64,000 nucleotides of DNA from NCBI GenBank assembly GCA_028286835.1, contig JAQBQT010000011.1, positions 5,246 to 69,245 on the forward strand, in the 5' to 3' direction. The notes below the pieces were generated by a model. That model was not told where the DNA came from, ran no database searches, and saw only the letters and a program-made list of their open reading frames with translations. Positions 39,555-62,138 of the stretch are shown here, piece by piece; the first letter of the stretch is position 1; each line of letters starts with the position of its first letter. The translations under genes and the position numbers were made by a program. Source of the DNA: Candidatus Parcubacteria bacterium (GTDB lineage: Bacteria > Patescibacteriota > Minisyncoccia > Phycocordibacterales > PALSA-1337).

Positions 39555-40352
39555 CTACTTCATTACCTTAGCGTGATAATACAAATGATTCGCATCTTTT
39601 GCATCATAATTAGGTTGATTAGTAACCAGAGAGAACGATTTCGGATCTGCACCTGAAATAGGTGTGCCAAGGGTCATTATTCCATCATTCACAACCTCGG
39701 GAATGACTGAGTACACTTTCTGGCTGTCTTTGGCATACCATTCATTCAAAACTACAAAAGTATCAGGATCAGCATTTCCATTTATTGGTTGTGCAGTAAA
39801 AGCATTATAAATGTGCCTGCTATCCTTTGCATATCCAGTTTGCTGGCCAGAATTATCTAGAATGAAATGAAACGAGGCGTCTGCTCCCGCAACCAAAGCA
39901 TCGAGAAAATATATATTGCTTTTATCCTTTGCATAAAATCCATAATAGCTATCAGCCTCGGTGTTATAGCCGATGAAAGAGAAGGTCGCGGGGTCTGCCA
40001 TTGGAAGAATTCTGATATTCCCCCACTGGTCCGGAAGGTAGACATGATTTTTATCTTTTGCATATTCATGCTCTGTACCAACAAATGTAGCCGGATCAGC
40101 ACCCGGAATAAGGGCTCTACAACCTGCCGTAGGGCAAGGAGAACTTTCAGTCAGGTAGAATACGCCAGAAGAGTCCCTTAAATAACCGCCATGCCCGTTA
40201 TAACCCATTGGACCGGCTATGGGAATACTTTTTTCTTCTTTTTGCTCTTCTTTTTTTGGGGAAAGATTTCGTATGGAAAGAGCATTGTAAACATACAGAC
40301 CCAATACGAAAAAAAGGGATAGGCCTATGAGTAATTTTATTGGTGATTTCAT
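39555..40352 (-). CDS. DKNYY-repeat secreted protein
   Basis: Repeated YAKDKNHVY / YAKDKSNIY / YAKDSRHIY / YAKDSQKVY / DAKDANHLYY units and an N-terminal TM/signal sequence. The gene is visibly more AT-rich than its flanks. The ATG at 40352 was chosen (MKSPIKLL). Confidence 0.6.
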   Translation of the reverse strand: MKSPIKLLIGLSLFFVLGLYVYNALSIRNLSPKKEEQKEEKSIPIAGPMGYNGHGGYLRDSSGVFYLTESSPCPTAGCRALIPGADPATFVGTEHEYAKDKNHVYLPDQWGNIRILPMADPATFSFIGYNTEADSYYGFYAKDKSNIYFLDALVAGADASFHFILDNSGQQTGYAKDSRHIYNAFTAQPINGNADPDTFVVLNEWYAKDSQKVYSVIPEVVNDGIMTLGTPISGADPKSFSLVTNQPNYDAKDANHLYYHAKVMK

Positions 40353-40387
40353 AATAGAGCTAGTTTGGATCCGAAATAAAACCCTTT

Positions 40388-41692
40388 TTACAGCTTCGTG
40401 ATATCCCTCGGCGACACGAGTTCGAATGCCCATTCAGCGGCGATGCGGATGCGCTTGCGCCACGAAGCGAACTTGGAAAGATAGACCGTGCGCCAGAGCC
40501 ACCACGTGAATCGGCCGGCAAGCTTCATAGAGAATATCTCGCCGATGGCAAACCACTGACCCACCGACACCATGCTGCCCGGCGAATTATAATGAAAATC
40601 CTTGAGAGGCTTTCCCGCTATGGCGGCGATTATGTTCTTAGCTACCCTTCCCGATTGGGATTGAGCCACCTGAGCGAGCATCGGCAATGGCCGAGTCTTG
40701 CTGGAGTCCTTGGCGAAATCGCGGGCATCGACATACGCAGCGGCATCGCCGAGCACGAATATGCGATCGCTGCCGAGGAGGCGGAAATTGCCGTCGACCG
40801 CGAGGCGACCGCCGGTCAGGGTCGGCTTGAGGTCTTCGAAATGCGGGATGATCGCCTTCACGCCCGCAGTCCATACGATCATCGAGGCGGGAATGGTCTC
40901 GCCGGATGCGAGCGTGAGCCCGGTCCGGGTCACTGCGCTCACGACAGTGCTGGATCTGACCGTGACCCCATTCTTGGTCAGGCGGTCCTGAGCGGCAGTG
41001 CGGAGGGACGGCTTGAACATCTCGAGCAATTCCTTGCTTGCATTGACGAGGGTGAGAGACGGCTCTTCAGGAGAGCATTTGCGCGGATCTTCGGCGCTGC
41101 AGTGGCTGGCGCCATAATAGCGGCCGACCAGGCCCGACATGAATTCAGACAGCTCTGCGGCGAGCTCGACTCCGGTAGCGCCGCCTCCGACGACGACGAA
41201 CGAGAGGAGCGCTTTGCGGTCATCGGCATTCTCGGTGAGGACTGCGCGTTCAAAAGTGTCGATGATGCGATTGCGTATGGCGGTTGCATCGGCGAGGCTC
41301 TTCAGGGGCAATGTGAATTCCGGAGCGCCTGGAATGCCATAATAGTTCGTCTCTGCGCCGAGGGCTGCGACGAGATAATCATAGCGGAGGATATGCACCT
41401 GGCCGTTCTCGCGGACCGCCACTGTCCGCTCGGCCGCGTTGATGCCATCGACGCTTCCCTGCACGATCCGGATGCCAGTATGCACGAAGACTTCACGGAG
41501 AGGCTCCGCGACATTCCTCGGGCTGAGGCCTCCCGTCGCCACTTCATGAAGGAGCGGCGTAAAAAGGAAATAATTGGTGCGATTGACGATGGTGACATCT
41601 ATCTCGCCGCGCTTGACGCGTGCCCTGAGTTTCTTGGCGACATTGGTTCCGCCGAATCCGGCTCCGAGGATGACAATGTGAGGACGAAGCAT
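40388..41692 (-). CDS. ndh: type II NADH dehydrogenase (NDH-2) / FAD-dependent pyridine nucleotide-disulfide oxidoreductase
   Basis: N-terminal GAGFGG dinucleotide-binding motif, a second GGGATGVE motif, and a C-terminal membrane-anchoring region. Confidence 0.85.
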   Translation of the reverse strand: MLRPHIVILGAGFGGTNVAKKLRARVKRGEIDVTIVNRTNYFLFTPLLHEVATGGLSPRNVAEPLREVFVHTGIRIVQGSVDGINAAERTVAVRENGQVHILRYDYLVAALGAETNYYGIPGAPEFTLPLKSLADATAIRNRIIDTFERAVLTENADDRKALLSFVVVGGGATGVELAAELSEFMSGLVGRYYGASHCSAEDPRKCSPEEPSLTLVNASKELLEMFKPSLRTAAQDRLTKNGVTVRSSTVVSAVTRTGLTLASGETIPASMIVWTAGVKAIIPHFEDLKPTLTGGRLAVDGNFRLLGSDRIFVLGDAAAYVDARDFAKDSSKTRPLPMLAQVAQSQSGRVAKNIIAAIAGKPLKDFHYNSPGSMVSVGQWFAIGEIFSMKLAGRFTWWLWRTVYLSKFASWRKRIRIAAEWAFELVSPRDITKL

Positions 41693-45885: not shown

Positions 45886-46929
45886 CTACGATTTTGAAGC
45901 ATCCACGAATGCACGCACTCCCTGAGAAGTAAGGGTATAGGTGCGGACAAAGGAATCATCGACATGGGCATATAATATCCCTTCGTTTTTACTTGTCTCG
46001 ATGAACTGGCTGGCGAATGTTATCGTCTTGGCTTCTGTGTCCTGAATGAACGGTTCCGGCGAAACCCAGTCGATTTTGCCGTGTTCGTAGTCATATATAA
46101 AGAGGCCAACTGAGAACATGCCGTACTTCGTCTCGCCTCCCTCTTTTGTGTTAGCTTCACGGCCATTAATGATGCCTAAGGCCTTGCCTTCCCCCGCATC
46201 ATAAAATTCGCGGGAAAAGAGCGGGCCTGGCGATGCGTGGCCGCTGATCCATGGTATGCCCTGTTCCTTTGGATGAAATACGGTTTCGCCAAATTTCCAT
46301 GGCTTGCCCATGTCTTCCACAATAGCGATTCGTACGGTTGAATATTTGTCTTCACCATCGACTATCCGGGATTCAACGAGATTGAGCCTGACTCCATTCT
46401 TGTTTATCGGAGCGATGGATATTTCCTTTGCGCCCGGCATGCCATGTACATCCATTTCTGGAGACAGGGCGGGCACAGTCATCTCGAGATGCGCCAAGTC
46501 CTTCCCCACCGCATGTCCGAGATATATGAGAGATTCTTTTGGTTTTATATTTTTACGAATGAACGGCATCGTAAAATAGAGGTGTGTGAGCCCGGTGAAG
46601 GAATCAATGAAAATATCCGGATCTTCAAGACCTATAAAATCCCGATCATCACTTGTAAGACCGGCGATAACTGCTGCTTCATTTTTTATTGGAATTCTTT
46701 CTCCGATTTTAAAGCTTTCAAGAGAGCTTCCCGTCACAAAGCGAAGCTCGCTGCGATCAGTAAATCCTTTTATTCCCACATTTCCTTCACGACTAGTAAT
46801 ACAGCGCAGGATGCCCTTCTTGTAGCCTGAAGACGGATCGAGTGCGATCGCCATCACATGCGTATACCGAGCGTCTGTTTCTATGACCTTGCCTTTATGC
46901 TCGATATACAAAGTCGGCTTTTTCATCAT
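45886..46929 (-). CDS. hypothetical protein, possible beta-propeller glycosidase/phosphorylase (GH130-like)
   Basis: 347 aa. Weak resemblance only. Confidence 0.35.
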   Translation of the reverse strand: MMKKPTLYIEHKGKVIETDARYTHVMAIALDPSSGYKKGILRCITSREGNVGIKGFTDRSELRFVTGSSLESFKIGERIPIKNEAAVIAGLTSDDRDFIGLEDPDIFIDSFTGLTHLYFTMPFIRKNIKPKESLIYLGHAVGKDLAHLEMTVPALSPEMDVHGMPGAKEISIAPINKNGVRLNLVESRIVDGEDKYSTVRIAIVEDMGKPWKFGETVFHPKEQGIPWISGHASPGPLFSREFYDAGEGKALGIINGREANTKEGGETKYGMFSVGLFIYDYEHGKIDWVSPEPFIQDTEAKTITFASQFIETSKNEGILYAHVDDSFVRTYTLTSQGVRAFVDASKS

Positions 46930-52453: not shown

Positions 52454-53422
52454 ATGGAACCCCGCGCGATACGCCCTCATACCAAGATCGGACCCTTCTT
52501 TATTTCCGCGCACTTCAAGGACGCCAAGGATCCCTGCATCGTGCATGACGGAGTGACCTGGCACATATTCGGCTCGGGCGGAACGGTCGTGAAGGAGGAG
52601 TGGAGCATCCTGCATGCAACGGCGCCGGACATCGGCGGACCGTGGACCGAACAGGAGCCGGCGAAGCTTGTCGGACTCGAAGGCATGCATGTTGCCGCGC
52701 CCAGCGTGATGTACGACCATCGCGACAAGCTTTTCCATATGGCGATCCAGGAGGACTTCACCGCACCAAGCGGCGGCATCGAATATCTCGTATCCGCGGA
52801 CGGCAAGACGTTCAGCTGGATGAAGAACCTCCTCGAGCCGATCTCTGGCTCGGCCGAAGCCGGACTCTATGATCCGCATTTTTCCGGGATCCGCGGAGAG
52901 AAATACCTGGTGTACGCCGGCATGCCTGCGTTCATGAGCAATGACCGGCCATTCATCCCCCAGCCGGACATCTTCGTCGCAAAGAGCCAGACGAACCTCT
53001 GGACCGGCCCGTGGAACCGCATGCAGAAGATCCTCGATCATGACGAGATCGCCTGGCATCACAACAGGCGCCAGGATCCCGACTACGAATGGGGCATCGA
53101 AGGGCCTCAGCTCGTCGAGCTTCCGAACGGCAAGATACTCCTCAATGCGACCTGCTTCCTGCCGGAAGGCAGGCGCGGCACGAGGCAGCGAGTATTCTTC
53201 GCCCTTGCCGACAATCCTGAAGGCCCATTCAAGAGCCTCGGCCCCGTCCTATCCGATCGGGACCAGGAATGGGAGTCCGGCGAGAATGGGCATGCGACCG
53301 CCTGGGTCTATCGCGACCAGCTCTATCTCTTCTATCAGGCGCGATCGCAAAAAAATCCCGATCCCCTTGCCAACAACTGGCAATACGGGCTCGCGATGTT
53401 CGACCTCAAGGACTTGATGTAA
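52454..53422 (+). CDS. beta-propeller glycoside hydrolase-like protein (GH43/GH130 superfamily suspected)
   Basis: DPCIVHDGVTWHIFGS resembles the first blade of five-bladed propeller glycosidases. The ATG at 52454 was chosen, which avoids a 125-nt antisense overlap with the AKR gene. Confidence 0.5.
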   Translation: MEPRAIRPHTKIGPFFISAHFKDAKDPCIVHDGVTWHIFGSGGTVVKEEWSILHATAPDIGGPWTEQEPAKLVGLEGMHVAAPSVMYDHRDKLFHMAIQEDFTAPSGGIEYLVSADGKTFSWMKNLLEPISGSAEAGLYDPHFSGIRGEKYLVYAGMPAFMSNDRPFIPQPDIFVAKSQTNLWTGPWNRMQKILDHDEIAWHHNRRQDPDYEWGIEGPQLVELPNGKILLNATCFLPEGRRGTRQRVFFALADNPEGPFKSLGPVLSDRDQEWESGENGHATAWVYRDQLYLFYQARSQKNPDPLANNWQYGLAMFDLKDLM

Positions 53423-53449
53423 AAAACGAGAAATAAGCTGCGTCGCTGG

Positions 53450-53974
53450 TTATGGATCCGGCTGGACTGCGCAATTGACGCAATAGCCCGGGACATTCTC
53501 GTCCCGATGCGCGGTGCAAGGGCCGGATACGCACCAGTACACGGCGCTATTCACCTGGAAATTCTGAGCCCATGCAGCCTTGGGGAATTGGCAATCTGAC
53601 AGATCTCCCCCGAGCGGGCAGAAGCGTATGCTGATCTGATCCACGGGAGTAGGCAGATCCGACCAGTTATCCCAGTCGTACACGCTTCCGGGCCACGGCG
53701 CATTCGGCCATGAATGAACATTGCCCCCGGCGATATATGGGCCGAGCCCGGGAGGGATATTCCTGTCGACATCATCGGGGTATTGCCCGTTATGTTCGGA
53801 TTGATAGAGCTCGAGGGCCGTCCAGATCGTGTAGAGCTCCTGTTTGGCGCGGCCTAGGTATGCCTTATCTCGCGCTTCATTCACGGAGACGAGCACGATC
53901 GAGGCGAGCATGCCGATGATGGAGAGGACGACCAGAAGCTCGATGAGCGTAAAGCCTTTTTGAGTCTGTTCCAT
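53450..53974 (-). CDS. type IV pilin / pseudopilin with a prepilin N-methylation site
   Basis: KGFTLIELLVVLSIIGMLASIVL is the class III signal peptide G/FTLIE. C-terminal Cys pairs. The ATG at 53974 was chosen (MEQTQKGFTLIE). Confidence 0.75.
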   Translation of the reverse strand: MEQTQKGFTLIELLVVLSIIGMLASIVLVSVNEARDKAYLGRAKQELYTIWTALELYQSEHNGQYPDDVDRNIPPGLGPYIAGGNVHSWPNAPWPGSVYDWDNWSDLPTPVDQISIRFCPLGGDLSDCQFPKAAWAQNFQVNSAVYWCVSGPCTAHRDENVPGYCVNCAVQPDP

Positions 53975-54084
53975 GACAATATAGTAGCATTTTTGCTGAT
54001 TGACCCGCATCATTTCCCATGATACTTTTGAGCCATCCAACAGCACCTTTTAAACCTCAACCGCACATAATCACAGGGGTATGT

Positions 54085-54396
54085 ATGAAAACACTGACCG
54101 ATCGCGAACGCCAGGGAGGGCGCGAGCGGCGAACAGCTGAATGCGCTCCCCTGCTGAAACAGCTTCATAAATGCAAGGGCCTGGCAAAGCTCAAGGAGGA
54201 GATAACCCTGTCAGTCCATGACCCTCTCAATGACGGCACCGAACCGTGGTCGAGCCTCCATGTGACCCGCCAAGGCTTGGAGATACAGAAGGAAGGGATC
54301 AGATCGCGTGTGACTGATTTCGAGTATTGCGCCCAGCTCTTCGAGTTTCTGAATGAGCACGAGATCAGTATGCTGATCGATGATCTGAGCTCCTGA
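54085..54396 (+). CDS. hypothetical small protein (103 aa)
   Basis: ORF with an ATG at 54085, followed immediately by a strong rho-independent terminator. No family recognised. Confidence 0.45.
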   Translation: MKTLTDRERQGGRERRTAECAPLLKQLHKCKGLAKLKEEITLSVHDPLNDGTEPWSSLHVTRQGLEIQKEGIRSRVTDFEYCAQLFEFLNEHEISMLIDDLSS

Positions 54397-54411
54397 GATA
54401 TCATGCGTGCC

Positions 54412-54441
54412 GCCGGTCCTTCCGAAAGGGCCGGCTTTTTT
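54412..54441 (+). terminator. rho-independent terminator
   Basis: GCCGGTCCTTCCGAAAGGGCCGGC followed by TTTTTT. Confidence 0.7.
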
Positions 54442-54471
54442 ATTCAGATGAGCTCGGATTTATCGGACAGC

Positions 54472-54873
54472 TTACGCAATTACCTGAGTGCAGTGGGAAC
54501 AGCGCTTGGCCTGAATGGGGATCTCGCTCATGCATTCAGGGCATTTCTTGGTCGTCGGATCGGCGGGAGGCTGCCTGCGCGAGCGCGACACAAGGACGTT
54601 TATCGGCTTCACCACGAAGAAGAAGACGGTGGAGGCGACGAGAACGAACGAGATGAGCGCATTCAGGAGATGGCCGTATGCGAACGTGCTTCCATGCACA
54701 GTAAAAACAAGATGGCTCAGATCGGGGATATTAGCGACGGTCGATATAAAAGGCGTCAGAAGGTCGGCTACGAGGGCATTCACGACCGAGGTGAATGCCG
54801 CACCGACGACGACACCGACCGCAAGGTCCACCACATTGCCTCGGAGCAGGAATTGTTTGAAGTCTTTGAACAT
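54472..54873 (-). CDS. mscL: large-conductance mechanosensitive channel MscL with a C-terminal zinc-ribbon extension
   Basis: MFKDFKQFLLRGNVVDLAVGVVVGAAFTSVVNALV is the MscL signature. C-terminal CPEC..CSHC. The ATG at 54873 was chosen; the track ORF has a 60-codon upstream extension. Confidence 0.85.
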   Translation of the reverse strand: MFKDFKQFLLRGNVVDLAVGVVVGAAFTSVVNALVADLLTPFISTVANIPDLSHLVFTVHGSTFAYGHLLNALISFVLVASTVFFFVVKPINVLVSRSRRQPPADPTTKKCPECMSEIPIQAKRCSHCTQVIA

Positions 54874-54943
54874 GGCGATATTATAAGCAAAAGACGTGCA
54901 CAGGACAACCTGTGCACGTGTTGCATGAGGCTTATTTGGACAA

Positions 54944-54971
54944 TAAAAAGACCGTCTCAAGGACGGTCTTA
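54944..54971 (-). terminator. rho-independent terminator after the HD-domain gene
   Basis: AAGACCGTC-TCAAG-GACGGTCTT, with a T-run on the minus strand. Confidence 0.6.
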
Positions 54972-54974
54972 TAC

Positions 54975-55535
54975 TCACAACCCAAAACGTATCGCGGCTT
55001 TCGCATATTCGGCTTCGAAAAGCGCATCGAGCACGGGACTTATTCCTTTGCATTCATCCGCAATCAGCTTGGCACCTCGAATGTAATTAGCCAATTCGCC
55101 TTCCTTTTCCGCCCATTTTTTGGAAGGATCAACAGTAAGCGACCTTACATTCGAAGTCTGATCGGCAATCTTGATTCTTTTCACCGAGTTACTCTTGCCC
55201 CTAACACGAACAGATTGTCGGCGTTTTCGTTCTGCTGTTGGTAGATCCGTGAACTCGGGTGGATCGGTGAGACCATCAACATTGGCCGCAACCTGATTCT
55301 CAAACCTAGCTTCAATTTCAGCAAGTGTTATCTTCGTATCCTCAACCATGTCATGAAGCCATGCTGAAGCGATTTCGATATCGCTGCCACCTGAGGCCCA
55401 GACAAGATCTGCAACCTCTTGTAGGTGTTCAGTCTGTTGTAGCCGACGACCTGATATCATTTCCCAAAAAATATCTTTATGCTCGCACAGCGCAAAAACT
55501 TTTGCCCGAATAATGAGATTATTATGATTTGTCAT
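54975..55535 (-). CDS. HD-domain (p)ppGpp-hydrolase-like protein, RelA/SpoT-type HD (small alarmone hydrolase, Mesh1-like)
   Basis: HLQEVADLV..SGGSDIEIASAWLHDMVEDT..LAEIEARFENQVAANVDGLT matches the SpoT-type HD motif. ~186 aa with no synthetase domain. The ATG at 55535 was chosen. The region is AT-richer than its surroundings. Confidence 0.65.
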   Translation of the reverse strand: MTNHNNLIIRAKVFALCEHKDIFWEMISGRRLQQTEHLQEVADLVWASGGSDIEIASAWLHDMVEDTKITLAEIEARFENQVAANVDGLTDPPEFTDLPTAERKRRQSVRVRGKSNSVKRIKIADQTSNVRSLTVDPSKKWAEKEGELANYIRGAKLIADECKGISPVLDALFEAEYAKAAIRFGL

Positions 55536-55642
55536 ATCTGGGCTGATACTAACAGAGATCGCTATTGAGTCAATATTAAAATTATAGCCAAATTTGCTAG
55601 TCGTATGGTTCGACGTTTGAAGCACTTCCAACAAATTGCTAC

Positions 55643-56158
55643 CTAACTAGCCCTGCTTAAAATATCATTAATAAATTCGATTTTCCTGCGATAATATTCT
55701 TTGACTGTCACACCATTGCTTTCTTCCTTTAATATTCTATAACGCTCCAGTTCCTCGGGATGTTTCCATAGATATGCCTCAAAAATCTTGCCGCGAATAT
55801 GATTAGGGTGATCCTCATCCGATATCTTCAGATCGATCTTTTTCCCTTCCACTTCTGTTTTGAATCTGACTCGATCAGGATATTGCGACTTCATAGGACC
55901 AAACTCCTTTTCTAGCTTGGGGATATAATCGGCAAACATTGCCTTATTGGCTACGATCGTAACATCGATTTCATCCTGTCCTGATATGCCAAAACTGCTC
56001 GCTCCGCAATGCTCTACAACCGCTTCTGGACCCAAAACTTTCAATATCCTCTCTTTGATCGAACCGTATAATCTTTCTGTCCTTGGATCGTACGGAACAA
56101 TTGATATAGCTTTATCGGAAAGAGTGCTCAAAAATTCTTCTTGTTCTTTGGTGATCAT
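55643..56158 (-). CDS. GrpB family protein (nucleotidyltransferase fold, UPF0157)
   Basis: HCGASSFGISGQDEIDV and FEAYLWKHPEELERYRILK correspond to the GrpB motifs hGSTAVPGL..IDI and FRDYLRxHPE..Y..LK. The ATG at 56158 was chosen. Confidence 0.6.
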   Translation of the reverse strand: MITKEQEEFLSTLSDKAISIVPYDPRTERLYGSIKERILKVLGPEAVVEHCGASSFGISGQDEIDVTIVANKAMFADYIPKLEKEFGPMKSQYPDRVRFKTEVEGKKIDLKISDEDHPNHIRGKIFEAYLWKHPEELERYRILKEESNGVTVKEYYRRKIEFINDILSRAS

Positions 56159-56168
56159 AAATTGATGA

Positions 56169-56522
56169 CTATATAGTTCGCAAAATCTTCTCCATCGGCC
56201 TGCCCTTGGCCAGCTCATCGATCAATTTGTCTAGATAACGGAGATTCTGCATGAGGGGGTCTTCGATCTCTTCGACACGTATGCCGCAGATAACGCCGGT
56301 GATCTGGGATCGCGCAGGATTCATCTTAGGAGCCTCGCCGTAGAAATCCCTGAATGGCGTCTGCTTCTTGAGCTGCCCCTCCAATCCTTTCTGGGTATAC
56401 CCCGTCAGCCAGCAGATGATCTCATCGACTTCGGCTTTGGTGCGACCCTTCCTCTCCGCCTTGGCGATGTAATACGGATAGACTTTTGCGAACGGCGTTG
56501 CGTAGAGATTTTCTTTAAGCAT
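56169..56522 (-). CDS. DUF2200-like protein
   Basis: [42 protein letters not shown]. The ATG at 56522 was chosen. Confidence 0.5.
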
Positions 56523-56587
56523 GGGATTTAATCTGCGATCTTGTTGGCTGTATGGTTGGGTGTATGAACAATTATGCAACAAATTCG

Positions 56588-56616
56588 ATAAAACAAAAAG
56601 GGCTAGTCATTGTAAC
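56588..56616 (-). terminator. rho-independent terminator after the small ORF 56647..56844
   Basis: AAGGGCTAGT-cattgta-ACTAGCCCTT, followed on the minus strand by TTTTTGTTTT. Confidence 0.65.
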
Positions 56617-56646
56617 TAGCCCTTGATTTACTATCTTAGAATTTGA

Positions 56647-56844
56647 TTACCGGGGCTTCCGATTATCAACCTGCGACAGTACAAACCTCACTACATCCTC
56701 AACGCTGACCCCAACAGCAAACTGAGGGGGCCGGTCCTTTAGTGCGTTGGCAATAGGATTGCCTACGGTTTCTTGACCTGCGCCGAACGTTCTGAATTGC
56801 AAACTCACGCTTTTTATAATTTTTTGAATTTTTTCTTCATTCAT
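56647..56844 (-). CDS. small hypothetical protein (65 aa)
   Basis: ORF with its own downstream terminator. The ATG is at 56844 (MNEEKIQKII). Confidence 0.35.
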   Translation of the reverse strand: MNEEKIQKIIKSVSLQFRTFGAGQETVGNPIANALKDRPPQFAVGVSVEDVVRFVLSQVDNRKPR

Positions 56845-56896
56845 ATACAAAACCTTTCTATGCTATTATAGCATAATACTAGATTCTGTCAAGTTG

Positions 56897-56967
56897 CTGC
56901 GGGACTTGGACTCGAACCAAGATAACGACCTCCAGAGGGTCGCGTCCTACCATTAGACGATCCCGCA
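56897..56967 (-). tRNA. tRNA-Gln (anticodon CUG)
   Basis: Cloverleaf built by hand. U1-A72, acceptor TGCGGGA/TCCCGCA, discriminator G73, anticodon loop CTCTGGA, T-arm CTTGG-TTCGAGT-CCAAG. CCA is not encoded. Confidence 0.88.
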
Positions 56968-57066
56968 AAATTTCCGCCGCTTTCAAACGTTTTCCGGAAG
57001 TACAAAGAGAATAGCGCAAAAAGGCTGATATTTCAATGCGCACTCGCTTTGTTTCCTGTGAGAGCC

Positions 57067-58857
57067 TTATTCCGCAAACAGCTCCTTCTCTATGGAAATG
57101 CCGCCGGGAATGTTCGCAGCCATGGCGTCGTCGGCCGATTTGGAGACGATGATCTTCGTGCGGTCCTTGGCCGCCTTCATAAATGCCGTGAACAAGGGAT
57201 GCGGCGAAAGCGGACGGGCCAAAAGCTCCGGATGGAACTGGGTGCCGAGGAAGAACGGGTGCTGTTCTCGCGGCAATTCGGCGATCTCCATGAGGACGCC
57301 GTCCGGGGACGTGCCCGAGAATACGAGGCCTCCCTTCCTGAGCTGATCGACATACTTCGGGCTGACTTCATAGCGATGGCGGTGGCGCTCCTTCACTGCC
57401 TGCGCGCCATATGCGGCTTCGGCGATCGTGCCCTTTCCGAGCTTGGCGGGATACACGCCGAGACGCATCGAGGCGCCATAGTTCCCTTCAGCCACTTTCT
57501 TCTTCTGGTCGGGCATGATGTCGATGACGAGATGCGGAGCTCGCGGATTGATCTCGGCGGTCTGCGCGCCCTTGAGACCGAGCACATTCCTGGCGAATTC
57601 GATGGTCATGAGCTGCATGCCGTAGCAGAGGCCGAAATACGGGATCTTGTTCTCACGGGCATGGCGGATGACATTGAGCTTCCCTTCGATGCCGCTTTCG
57701 CCGAATCCGCCCGGCACAATGATGCCGTTGTATTTGTCGAACGATGCGTAGTTCGGATTCTTGCCCTCGAAGTCGCGCGCATTAACGGTGTGAATGACAG
57801 CCTTCACGCCAGCGGCATACGCGGAGAATTTGATCGCCTCGAGTACCGAGATATACGAGTCAGAGAGGATGAAGTCGCCCGTATTGAAATATTTTCCGAC
57901 AACGCCTATGTGCACTTCGTGCTTGGTGTTGTTCTTGATGCCGCGGGCCATCTTTTTCCAGGCCTGGAATGAAGCCGTGGTTTTCCTCGCAGGCATATGC
58001 AGGGTCTCCATAAGGATGTCGCCGAGGTGGTCATGCTCGAAGTTGATAGGCACATCGTAGATACTCTTTATGTCGGGAGCAGAGATGACGCGCTCGGGAA
58101 GGATGTTGCAGGCAGTGGCGATCTTCTCCTTGCGCTTCTGATCGAGCGGGATCTCCGCGCGGGCGATGATGATGTCGGTATTCACTCCGTACGAAGCGAG
58201 CTGATGCACGGCATTCTGTGTCGGCCGTGTCTTCATCTCGCCGAGCTTGGACGGAACGGGCAGGTACGAAACCATGATGAACGCGACGTCCTGGGGGCGG
58301 CGAATCTTGAGGGTACGTGCGGCCTCGATGAACATGATGTTCTGATAGTCGCCAACGGTGCCGCCGATCTCGATGATGGAGATGTCGGACTTGTTGACCT
58401 TGGCCGCATGCTCGAAGCGGCGCATGACCTCGTCGCGAATATGCGGAATGGCCTCGACGCATTTGCCCCCATACCCGAGGGCACGCTCACGGTCGATGAC
58501 CGCCTTGTAGACCATGCCAGACGTCATATAGTCGGCATCGGTGAGGTCGCGATTAAGGAAGCGCTCGTAGTTGCCCATGTCCTGATCCGTCTCGAGGCCG
58601 CTGTTCAAAACAAAAACCTCACCGTGCTCGGTGGGGTTCATGGTGCCCGCGTCGACGTTGAGATATGGATCGACCTTCACGAGATTGACCTGGAAGCCTT
58701 TGGCGGAGAGGAGCGTGCCGATCGAGGAGGATGCGATGCCCTTTCCGACTCCCGACATCACGCCGCCGATGACGAAGATGTATTTGTGCGGGGCGCGCTT
58801 TTTGCTTGTCTTGCCCGCCAAGGCGCCCTTCTTCGTCTTCGGAGTTTTCTTTTTCAT
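57067..58857 (-). CDS. pyrG: CTP synthase PyrG
   Basis: N-terminal synthetase domain (KYIFVIGGVMSGVGKGI) and C-terminal class I glutamine amidotransferase (GGFGESGIEGK, LCYGMQ, H..E). K-rich N-terminal extension. Confidence 0.95.
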   Translation of the reverse strand: MKKKTPKTKKGALAGKTSKKRAPHKYIFVIGGVMSGVGKGIASSSIGTLLSAKGFQVNLVKVDPYLNVDAGTMNPTEHGEVFVLNSGLETDQDMGNYERFLNRDLTDADYMTSGMVYKAVIDRERALGYGGKCVEAIPHIRDEVMRRFEHAAKVNKSDISIIEIGGTVGDYQNIMFIEAARTLKIRRPQDVAFIMVSYLPVPSKLGEMKTRPTQNAVHQLASYGVNTDIIIARAEIPLDQKRKEKIATACNILPERVISAPDIKSIYDVPINFEHDHLGDILMETLHMPARKTTASFQAWKKMARGIKNNTKHEVHIGVVGKYFNTGDFILSDSYISVLEAIKFSAYAAGVKAVIHTVNARDFEGKNPNYASFDKYNGIIVPGGFGESGIEGKLNVIRHARENKIPYFGLCYGMQLMTIEFARNVLGLKGAQTAEINPRAPHLVIDIMPDQKKKVAEGNYGASMRLGVYPAKLGKGTIAEAAYGAQAVKERHRHRYEVSPKYVDQLRKGGLVFSGTSPDGVLMEIAELPREQHPFFLGTQFHPELLARPLSPHPLFTAFMKAAKDRTKIIVSKSADDAMAANIPGGISIEKELFAE

Positions 58858-61673: not shown

Positions 61674-62138
61674 TTACCCCATCCGCCTCAAAACAGAAAA
61701 GTTAAGTTTACGCGCTTCCTGAGATCGTATGCTTATAGCCCTATTCCTCCTTCCTTTTCCTTTATTCAAACCAGCATAGGTCAAAGTTAAGGCATCGCAG
61801 TTTGGGCAAATCAAACGAAGATTACTTTCTAAATTATTACGCCAATTTCCATCCATATGATCTGCAACCAGAGGGACCTGGCCTGTCTTAGGATGAACTT
61901 CGCACCAGCCGCATATGCAGCACTTATTGCCATACTTCTTCCTCAAATATTTCTTAACGTATTTAGAGACTATGCCAAGACTTTGTAATCCCGTCTTCTC
62001 TCCCTTTTTCCACTGCTCGATATAAATACTGTACTGATATTCCAATTGGCAATTATTGCTGCAGTATTTACGTCTAGAATGGGAGTTCGGTTTTTGGCAA
62101 TTCAGGCATTTATCTTTGATGGATTTGGATATAGCCAT
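61674..62138 (-). CDS. HNH endonuclease (zinc-binding HNH nuclease, homing-endonuclease-like)
   Basis: CLNCQ..C..C and [36 protein letters not shown] carry the H-N-H plus CxxC motifs. The ATG at 62138 was chosen because the track ORF extends into the tRNA-Thr gene. The stop lies 11 nt upstream of the prfB ATG. Confidence 0.75.

Follow-up and report, generated by a model that had tools for sequence, protein, structure and literature searches.

An accessory-gene islet with a Mesh1-like hydrolase gene 3′ of tRNA-Gln(CTG) in a Candidatus Parcubacteria genome

We analyzed a 64-kb window of a Candidatus Parcubacteria genome (Paceibacteria, candidate phyla radiation (CPR)) and focused on an islet of ~1.9 kb in which genes for an HD_4 hydrolase, a GrpB protein, a DUF2200 protein and a 65-aa protein lie between a tRNA-Gln(CTG) gene and mscL. 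Coordinates are positions in the window, which is the whole stretch of DNA analyzed, unless a locus in a relative is named. The segment 54975–56892 is probably a small mosaic, no longer mobile, of accessory genes that were each gained independently, in a variable region 3′ of tRNA-Gln(CTG), a site used by large-serine-recombinase elements in related Paceibacteria. The evidence comes from what follows the same tRNA in relatives, from the base composition and transcription signals of the islet, and from the contexts in which homologues of its genes occur.

A variable site 3′ of tRNA-Gln(CTG)

The tRNA-Gln(CTG) gene (56896–56967, minus strand), called by ARAGORN and matched by Rfam RF00005 at 58.9 bits, forms both the right-hand edge of the islet and the end of a conserved prfB-ftsE-ftsX-pyrG-tRNA-Gln block. 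Read along the minus strand, on which all of these genes lie, the order is pyrG, tRNA-Gln(CTG), the 65-aa open reading frame (ORF; 56647–56844), the DUF2200 gene (56169–56522; 117 aa), the GrpB gene (55643–56158; 171 aa), the HD_4 hydrolase gene (54975–55535; 186 aa counted from the ATG) and mscL, just as a first-pass annotation of this DNA had described when it placed four same-strand genes beside tRNA-Gln. The islet opens with a promoter, 4 nt past the tRNA 3′ end. The same sample has also been assembled independently (Logan SRR13312974), and a 2191-bp sequence from that assembly matches 54733–56923 without a difference and covers both junctions of the islet, which are therefore not a binning artefact.

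The nearest pyrG relatives of the window are 74–77% identical, and all are Patescibacteria metagenome-assembled genomes (MAGs). Among the 71 relatives with enough flank downstream of pyrG to be scored, 45 carry tRNA-Gln at this position, with a CTG anticodon in all but one and on the same strand in 42. The genes that follow the tRNA differ in every one of these 45 relatives and none shares the set of the window, while in an alignment of relatives the similarity ends exactly at the tRNA-Gln 3′ end. Of 34 relatives compared, 29 have a higher AT content in the 2 kb past the tRNA than in pyrG. In 6 of the 45, a large serine recombinase gene lies 6–1500 bp 3′ of tRNA-Gln(CTG) (L001 11757–13262; L004 14655–15953; L011 11531–12850; L054 10420–11829; L055 13221–14498; L060 5897–7312); the Resolvase, Recombinase and Zn_ribbon domains were assigned by Pfam in L001, L004 and L011, and the recombinases of L054, L055 and L060 were identified by tblastn homology. 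Low-GC cargo genes stand beside the recombinase where the flank was inspected (L004 and L011). The presence of these recombinases at tRNA-Gln in six Paceibacteria implies that integrative elements of one family have tRNA-Gln(CTG) as their target.

The tRNA position had earlier been read as a sign of horizontal acquisition. Recombinases at the orthologous tRNA-Gln of six relatives and the loss of similarity at the tRNA 3′ end argue for this reading of the site, which extends to the hydrolase gene only with qualification: the small alarmone hydrolase (SAH) family to which it belongs occurs widely in Paceibacteria and recurs 3′ of tRNA-Gln genes, so that its position may be old rather than recent. 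One relative, L009, carries a DUF2200 gene right after tRNA-Gln. Its product is 63% identical to the window copy, and because cross-phylum homologues are more similar (72–77%), the gene in L009 is probably a separate insertion; we rejected common ancestry of the two insertions on this identity and on intergenic DNA that could not be convincingly aligned.

Composition and transcription signals of the islet

Base composition sets most of the islet apart from its surroundings. The block 54975–56850 has a GC content of 0.439 against a mean of 0.544 for same-size windows (sd 0.030; z about −3.5) and is the lowest-GC stretch of its own size in the 64 kb, with 0.6% of same-size windows as low. The window median of GC content at third codon positions (GC3) is 0.67; the hydrolase and GrpB genes each stand at 0.40 and the small ORF at 0.46, the first two ranking second and third lowest among about 68 ORFs. 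The DUF2200 gene is host-like at 0.68, close to mscL at 0.69, with pyrG higher at 0.78. An AT-richer islet of four genes, as first annotated, is thus borne out by the block as a whole and by three of its genes (GC3 0.40–0.46), with DUF2200 falling outside the description. The DUF2200 stop codon lies 10 nt ahead of the GrpB start, and GC3 falls from 0.68 to 0.40 across this 10-nt spacer, which indicates that the two genes have different histories. Lone AT-rich genes also occur elsewhere in the window, including a gene for a DKNYY-family protein (39555–40433; GC3 0.345) and two genes without a Pfam match (45886–46929, GC3 0.49; 61674–62138, GC3 0.44), and these orphans make the piecemeal gain of low-GC genes appear normal for this genome.

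Two intrinsic terminators on the minus strand frame the organization of the islet, one after the hydrolase gene at its left-hand edge (54948–54970; sequence signal scan) and one after the small ORF (56598–56624; a 12-bp stem followed by a T-run), where the region 56523–56646 folds with z = −5.1. The first-pass annotation had taken the islet for a unit with its own terminators. Both terminators exist, but the second is internal: with the small ORF on one side and the three remaining genes on the other, the islet is not a single transcription unit. We propose at least two. In the first, a consensus promoter and a terminator would serve the phage-type 65-aa gene alone; the second would comprise DUF2200 and GrpB, with transcription probably continuing into the hydrolase gene, where a weak separate promoter may also act. 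No terminator between DUF2200, GrpB and the hydrolase gene was found in the signal scan. The 107-nt spacer between GrpB and the hydrolase gene holds a weak candidate promoter (55546–55573, minus strand; TTGACT, 16-nt spacer, TG-TAGTAT), whose 9/12 score is also attained by chance matches.

The promoter of the small ORF is a consensus sigma-70 site (56865–56892, minus strand) with TTGACA, a 16-nt spacer and a TG-extended TATAAT (TGcTATAAT), matching 12 of 12 positions. A perfect 17-nt palindrome, TATGCTATAATAGCATA, read directly from the sequence at 56859–56875, covers the −10 box of this promoter, and the surrounding region 56845–56895 folds with z = −3.4. The palindrome is a possible operator, and its placement over the small ORF's own −10 suggests autoregulation. 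A 28-nt direct repeat with 71% identity and the core AACCATAC lies upstream of the hydrolase start (55594–55621) and upstream of the DUF2200 start (56541–56568); the similarity could mark a common regulatory motif or be due to chance. An Rfam search of the intergenic regions returned the tRNA as the sole RNA family, its one sub-threshold small-RNA match being in fact a terminator, and on this basis we rejected a riboswitch or other non-coding RNA between the genes.

Beyond the left-hand edge, a promoter-like site for mscL (54880–54908, minus strand) follows the hydrolase terminator and is overlapped by a hairpin with an 11-bp stem (54894–54919), right after that terminator. The mscL gene itself (54472–54873, minus strand) was placed by gene calling, as was pyrG at the other side of the tRNA (57067–58857, minus strand). 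The MscL C-terminus carries a CxxC...CxxC zinc-ribbon-like tail, KKCPECMSEIPIQAKRCSHC, with a sub-threshold match to UPF0547 (23.7 bits against a cutoff of 29).

The Mesh1-like hydrolase and its three neighbors

Searches with Pfam models placed the HD_4, GrpB and DUF2200 proteins above their curated thresholds, confirming the gene identities first assigned. The hydrolase is, by every sequence criterion, a standalone Mesh1-like SAH. It matches PF13328 at 39.3 bits (cutoff 27.2) and the hydrolase region of TIGR00691 with E 1e-10, and its 186 aa contain one Pfam domain, without synthetase, TGS or ACT domains. We found 292 homologues of about 180–200 aa at 46–59% identity, the named ones coming from Paceibacterota, Minisyncoccia and Nomurabacteria; the 120 listed homologues range from 171 to 219 aa and contain HD-type Pfam domains alone (PF13328; one also PF01966). 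A profile of 25 family members gave fly and human Mesh1 as its best PDB matches, over their full length and with E values from 3e-26 to 6e-23, and Mesh1 structures outscored bacterial SAHs and long Rel enzymes. Residues H19, H37, H61-D62, E65-D66, R103-K104, D125 and N129 are invariant in all 25 members including the window protein, and the catalytic residues align with the Mesh1 motifs LHD.VEDT, ERK and LADK..N. Domain match, invariant residues and best structural match all agree with the original call of a standalone SpoT-type HD hydrolase that has no synthetase domain. A search for relatives in IMG/VR returned none for the hydrolase or for GrpB, and a phage origin of either gene was rejected.

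Comparison with characterized enzymes suggests what the hydrolase may do. Mesh1 and Mesh1-L (Atkinson 2011, PMC3153485) likewise have a single HD domain of ~180 aa, align over the full length and share all metal and catalytic residues; the window protein differs in being about 27% identical to human MESH1, in belonging to its own Paceibacteria-specific clade and in being known here from sequence. Literature searches on RelA/SpoT homologue (RSH) enzymes in CPR/Patescibacteria returned nothing relevant, and we did not find a Paceibacteria-specific Mesh1-like clade described in the RSH literature. Known SAHs hydrolyze (p)ppGpp, (p)ppApp and NADPH and serve as antitoxins or guard against (p)ppApp toxins (PMC7229694, PMC9765508), and animals and a few archaea are known to have SAHs but no synthetases (PMC3153485). 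The Xanthomonas enzyme XccSAH (PMC9765508) is similar in having no adjoining toxic synthetase, in plausible hydrolysis of (p)ppGpp, pppApp and NADPH, and in plausible protection against the (p)ppApp toxins of competitors. Xanthomonas, however, has its own RelA/SpoT, whereas a tblastn search with three approximate synthetase-domain queries found no alarmone synthetase in 1.70 Mb of scattered Paceibacteria loci including the window, which is a weak test of the first-pass remark that the lineage generally lacks RelA/SpoT. By homology, a predicted Mn2+ center (H..HD..ED..D..N) would remove the 3′-pyrophosphate from (p)ppGpp or (p)ppApp and possibly the 2′-phosphate of NADPH. In a nucleotide-scavenging CPR cell, the enzyme may clear alarmones or related toxic nucleotides of outside origin, for example molecules from a host or products made by the toxins of competitors.

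GrpB and DUF2200 are clear members of their families (PF04229, PDB 2NRK; PF09966, PDB 3C9P), neither of which is known to have an established function; the PDB molecule names for these two matches read only "hypothetical" or "uncharacterized". GrpB matches PF04229 at 61.5 bits (cutoff 25.5), and its family profile matches the GrpB structure 2nrk with E 1.4e-6. Its nucleotidyltransferase motif G-x-S...GQDEIDV is intact, with invariant G52, S54 and D62-E63-I64-D65, giving it the appearance of an active nucleotidyltransferase. The nearest homologues, at 60–67% identity, come from Paceibacterota and Vogelbacteria and occupy unrelated contexts, three of them adjoining an NTPase gene, an APH-type kinase gene and alaS, respectively. 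DUF2200 matches PF09966 at 169 bits over model positions 2–111 of 111, and PDB 3c9p (S. pneumoniae SP1917) with E 3e-28; it has >8000 homologues that are 72–84% identical even between phyla, and a 'Candidatus Parcubacteria' MAG is the source of an NCBI entry identical to the window protein. In two other Parcubacteria, DUF2200 adjoins the gene for an ABC_tran_Xtn protein of ~225 aa (L158 3861–4547; L160 5328–5996) that is absent from the window and is a possible conserved partner of DUF2200.

The small ORF encodes a phage-associated member of an unannotated conserved domain family and is arranged like a phage moron, in a self-contained unit of promoter, gene and terminator. The family, with 369 cluster representatives at E<=1e-3, is defined by a domain of ~55 residues with the motif FRTFGGG..GNPIA.ALKD.PP.FAAGVDVE.VVRFVL, which stands alone or is fused to other domains, for example LexA_DNA_bind or a receiver domain. 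We found no match to the window protein in Pfam, NCBIfam, PADLOC or PHROGs. Its AlphaFold2 model is confident (predicted local distance difference test 91.8), and this fold found no match in the PDB or BFVD. In IMG/VR, 7 viral contigs encode homologues, and in the three of these that were examined the neighbors are small genes of early type; this fits a mobile origin of the DNA that abuts the tRNA. Phage morons share the perfect promoter, the strong terminator of their own and the phage homologues; unlike a moron, the small ORF has no prophage around it.

Hydrolase genes beside tRNAs and the competing readings

Several observations weigh against acquisition at the tRNA as the origin of the islet. 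A tblastn search found no recombinase homologue in the window, which also contains no integrase or mobility gene; the tRNA 3′ end is not duplicated (25-mer search, up to 3 mismatches); and the repeats detected in 53000–58000, direct or inverted, are short and at chance level. On these points the first-pass annotation, which had reported neither an integrase nor a duplicated tRNA 3′ end, was correct. Serine recombinases are not known to leave long direct repeats, and the absent attachment (att) repeat is therefore weak evidence. As the window holds no recombinase, att repeat or mobility gene, we infer rather than observe that the islet is what remains of an element. It resembles tRNA-adjacent islands and large-serine-recombinase elements in its place at a tRNA 3′ end, atypical composition, variable gene content and the recombinases at the same site in 6 relatives, and differs from them in having no recombinase, att sites or mobility genes, in its size of 1.9 kb and in one compositionally native gene of four; as an integrative element it is at most a remnant. 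With a best pyrG identity of 77%, there is also no close relative for an empty-site comparison. The dinucleotide signature of the block is ordinary, 24% of windows being equally deviant, and genes that are seldom expressed could have a low GC3 partly through weak selection, without being foreign. Elsewhere, the hydrolase gene is host-like in composition in most genomes. A neighbor-joining tree, unbootstrapped, places the tRNA-linked hydrolase genes in one large clade that includes the window gene, and the linkage of the family to tRNA-Gln in many genomes is explained at least as well by old synteny as by repeated insertion.

That linkage emerged from a survey of 70 hydrolase loci, forming 45 clusters at 85% identity, 26 of which could be evaluated for neighboring tRNAs. 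A tRNA gene lies within 2 kb upstream of the hydrolase gene in 11 of the 26 clusters, on the same strand in 10. In 7 of the 11 the closest such gene is tRNA-Gln (CTG or TTG), and the rest have tRNA-Ser, tRNA-Trp or tRNA-Ala. Under random placement, the binomial P for tRNA-Gln linkage is about 1e-10, and 7 of 20 tRNAs in hydrolase loci are Gln against about 4% expected; the clusters share phylogenetic history, and these figures therefore exaggerate the linkage. Two loci, L084 and L093, have the order ftsX-pyrG-tRNA-Gln-(197-aa membrane protein)-hydrolase, like the window, and two others, L100 (3289–4362) and L108 (6925–7552), have dnaX-tRNA-Gln(TTG)-hydrolase. In L108, the hydrolase ATG lies 2 nt past the tRNA, which implies co-transcription with it, and in L100, L110 and L151 we found no obvious terminator or promoter between tRNA and hydrolase gene. 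Searches of 8 tRNA–hydrolase loci found no additional RNA families.

The neighborhoods of these genes show further features. Small GIY-YIG proteins directly adjoin tRNAs that precede hydrolase genes (L097 5578–5814; L099 1972–2205), as do a weakly LAGLIDADG-like protein (L087 4571–5416) and two unannotated proteins of ~230 aa that are similar at their N-termini (L100 2569–3261; L110 6164–6853). The set hints at homing-type activity around these tRNAs. Neighbors of the hydrolase gene are often small nucleotide-metabolism proteins, such as an upstream 136-aa ORF (L097 6573–6983; motif GSG..EDIDL), which overlaps the hydrolase start, an upstream CYTH protein (L101 3219–3779) and a downstream MazG-like protein (L082 6839–7186), and this theme in a variable neighbor set may be non-random.

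The linkage lends weight to an alternative in which the hydrolase gene has been tied to tRNA-Gln since early in this Paceibacteria clade, perhaps co-transcribed with it, and only the small ORF, DUF2200 and GrpB were inserted later, the AT-rich hydrolase allele stemming from recombination with a lower-GC relative or from weak codon selection. We regard this as a possibility of some substance, though rather unlikely. It draws on the tRNA-proximal clusters and their low P value, on the window-like order in L084 and L093 and the dnaX-tRNA-Gln(TTG) arrangement in L100 and L108, on the absence of a clear terminator or promoter between tRNA and hydrolase gene in L100, L110 and L151, and on the single clade of tRNA-linked genes, none of the loci having a recombinase beside the hydrolase gene. 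Against it, the hydrolase gene is absent from the retrieved flank in all 45 pyrG-tRNA-Gln relatives, and its occurrence after tRNA-Ser, tRNA-Trp and tRNA-Ala is more in keeping with a broad affinity for variable DNA beside tRNAs. In the window, moreover, a strong terminator and three genes part the tRNA from the hydrolase gene, and both the P value and the tree carry the limits given above. The recurrent placement directly after tRNA-Gln, in some loci without room for a promoter, could also reflect functional coupling in Paceibacteria, with the hydrolase co-transcribed with the tRNA and having one of two roles: clearing alarmones, with no other enzyme to do so, in a lineage that has no (p)ppGpp synthetase, or removing from the tRNA CCA end a 3′-pyrophosphate added by toxSAS-type toxins. 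We consider this coupling distinctly unlikely; if true, the hydrolase would be a built-in tRNA/alarmone detoxification gene of CPR bacteria.

It is quite improbable that the islet contains no foreign DNA at all and owes its AT-richness to weakly expressed, fast-evolving native accessory genes, its position at a tRNA being incidental. The genome-typical dinucleotide signature, the restriction of the nearest hydrolase and GrpB homologues to the same class and the absence of mobility genes and att sites agree with such an origin, but the GC3 gap of 0.27 from the median is large, the shift from DUF2200 to GrpB occurs within 10 nt, recombinase-bearing inserts occupy the same site in 6 relatives, and the small ORF has phage homologues.

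The first-pass annotation had further likened the pairing of the HD protein with a nucleotidyltransferase-fold protein to a nucleotide-signaling or toxin–antitoxin-like module, and this part of it fails. The pairing occurs in 0 of 45 hydrolase clusters and 0 of 3 GrpB contexts: tblastn against the 70 hydrolase loci found no GrpB, DUF2200 or small ORF, and the hydrolase is absent from the 3 GrpB contexts and from 2 DUF2200 contexts. PADLOC returned no match for any of the four proteins, and none of the neighboring proteins GrpB (PF04229), DUF2200 and MscL has a RelA_SpoT synthetase domain. The 136-aa ORF of L097 was considered as a GrpB-like partner and rejected, as it has no Pfam match and aligns to GrpB with an hhalign probability of 0.3%. 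The four genes are an assortment, not a toxin–antitoxin-like system, and their products would not work together. Pairs of a toxSAS and an SAH, such as FaRel-ATfaRel (PMC7229694) or those with tRNA-CCA-pyrophosphorylating toxSAS (bioRxiv 10.1101/2021.04.30.441581), also set an SAH beside a nucleotidyltransferase-fold protein in mobile-looking DNA; the window differs in that the neighbor is GrpB and not a RelA_SpoT-family synthetase, the bicistronic order is not conserved and no defense or toxin–antitoxin model matches. A two-gene module in which, by analogy with toxSAS and SAH, GrpB would make a toxic or signaling nucleotide that the hydrolase degrades is thus very improbable: the genes are adjacent on one strand with no terminator between them and equal GC3 of 0.40, GrpB keeps its catalytic motif, SAHs are known type IV antitoxins of toxSAS (PMC7229694) and the L097 ORF with its GSG...EDIDL motif overlaps the hydrolase start by 4 nt, but the pairing does not recur, GrpB belongs to another family, the L097 ORF shows no detectable relation to GrpB, and a 107-nt spacer with a candidate promoter lies between the two genes.

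Read as a mosaic of accessory genes whose history would be one of acquisition and decay, the islet is a routine case of a tiny CPR genome gathering accessory genes at a tRNA hotspot, and an unsupported 'alarmone module' annotation is removed from it. The analysis also brings to light an orphan Mesh1-like family that is common in Paceibacteria, nucleotide scavengers that may lack alarmone synthetases, a statistically strong and previously unremarked linkage of this SAH family to tRNA-Gln, and a phage-associated, well-folded 55-residue domain family with no fold match that is missing from Pfam, NCBIfam, PHROGs and PADLOC.

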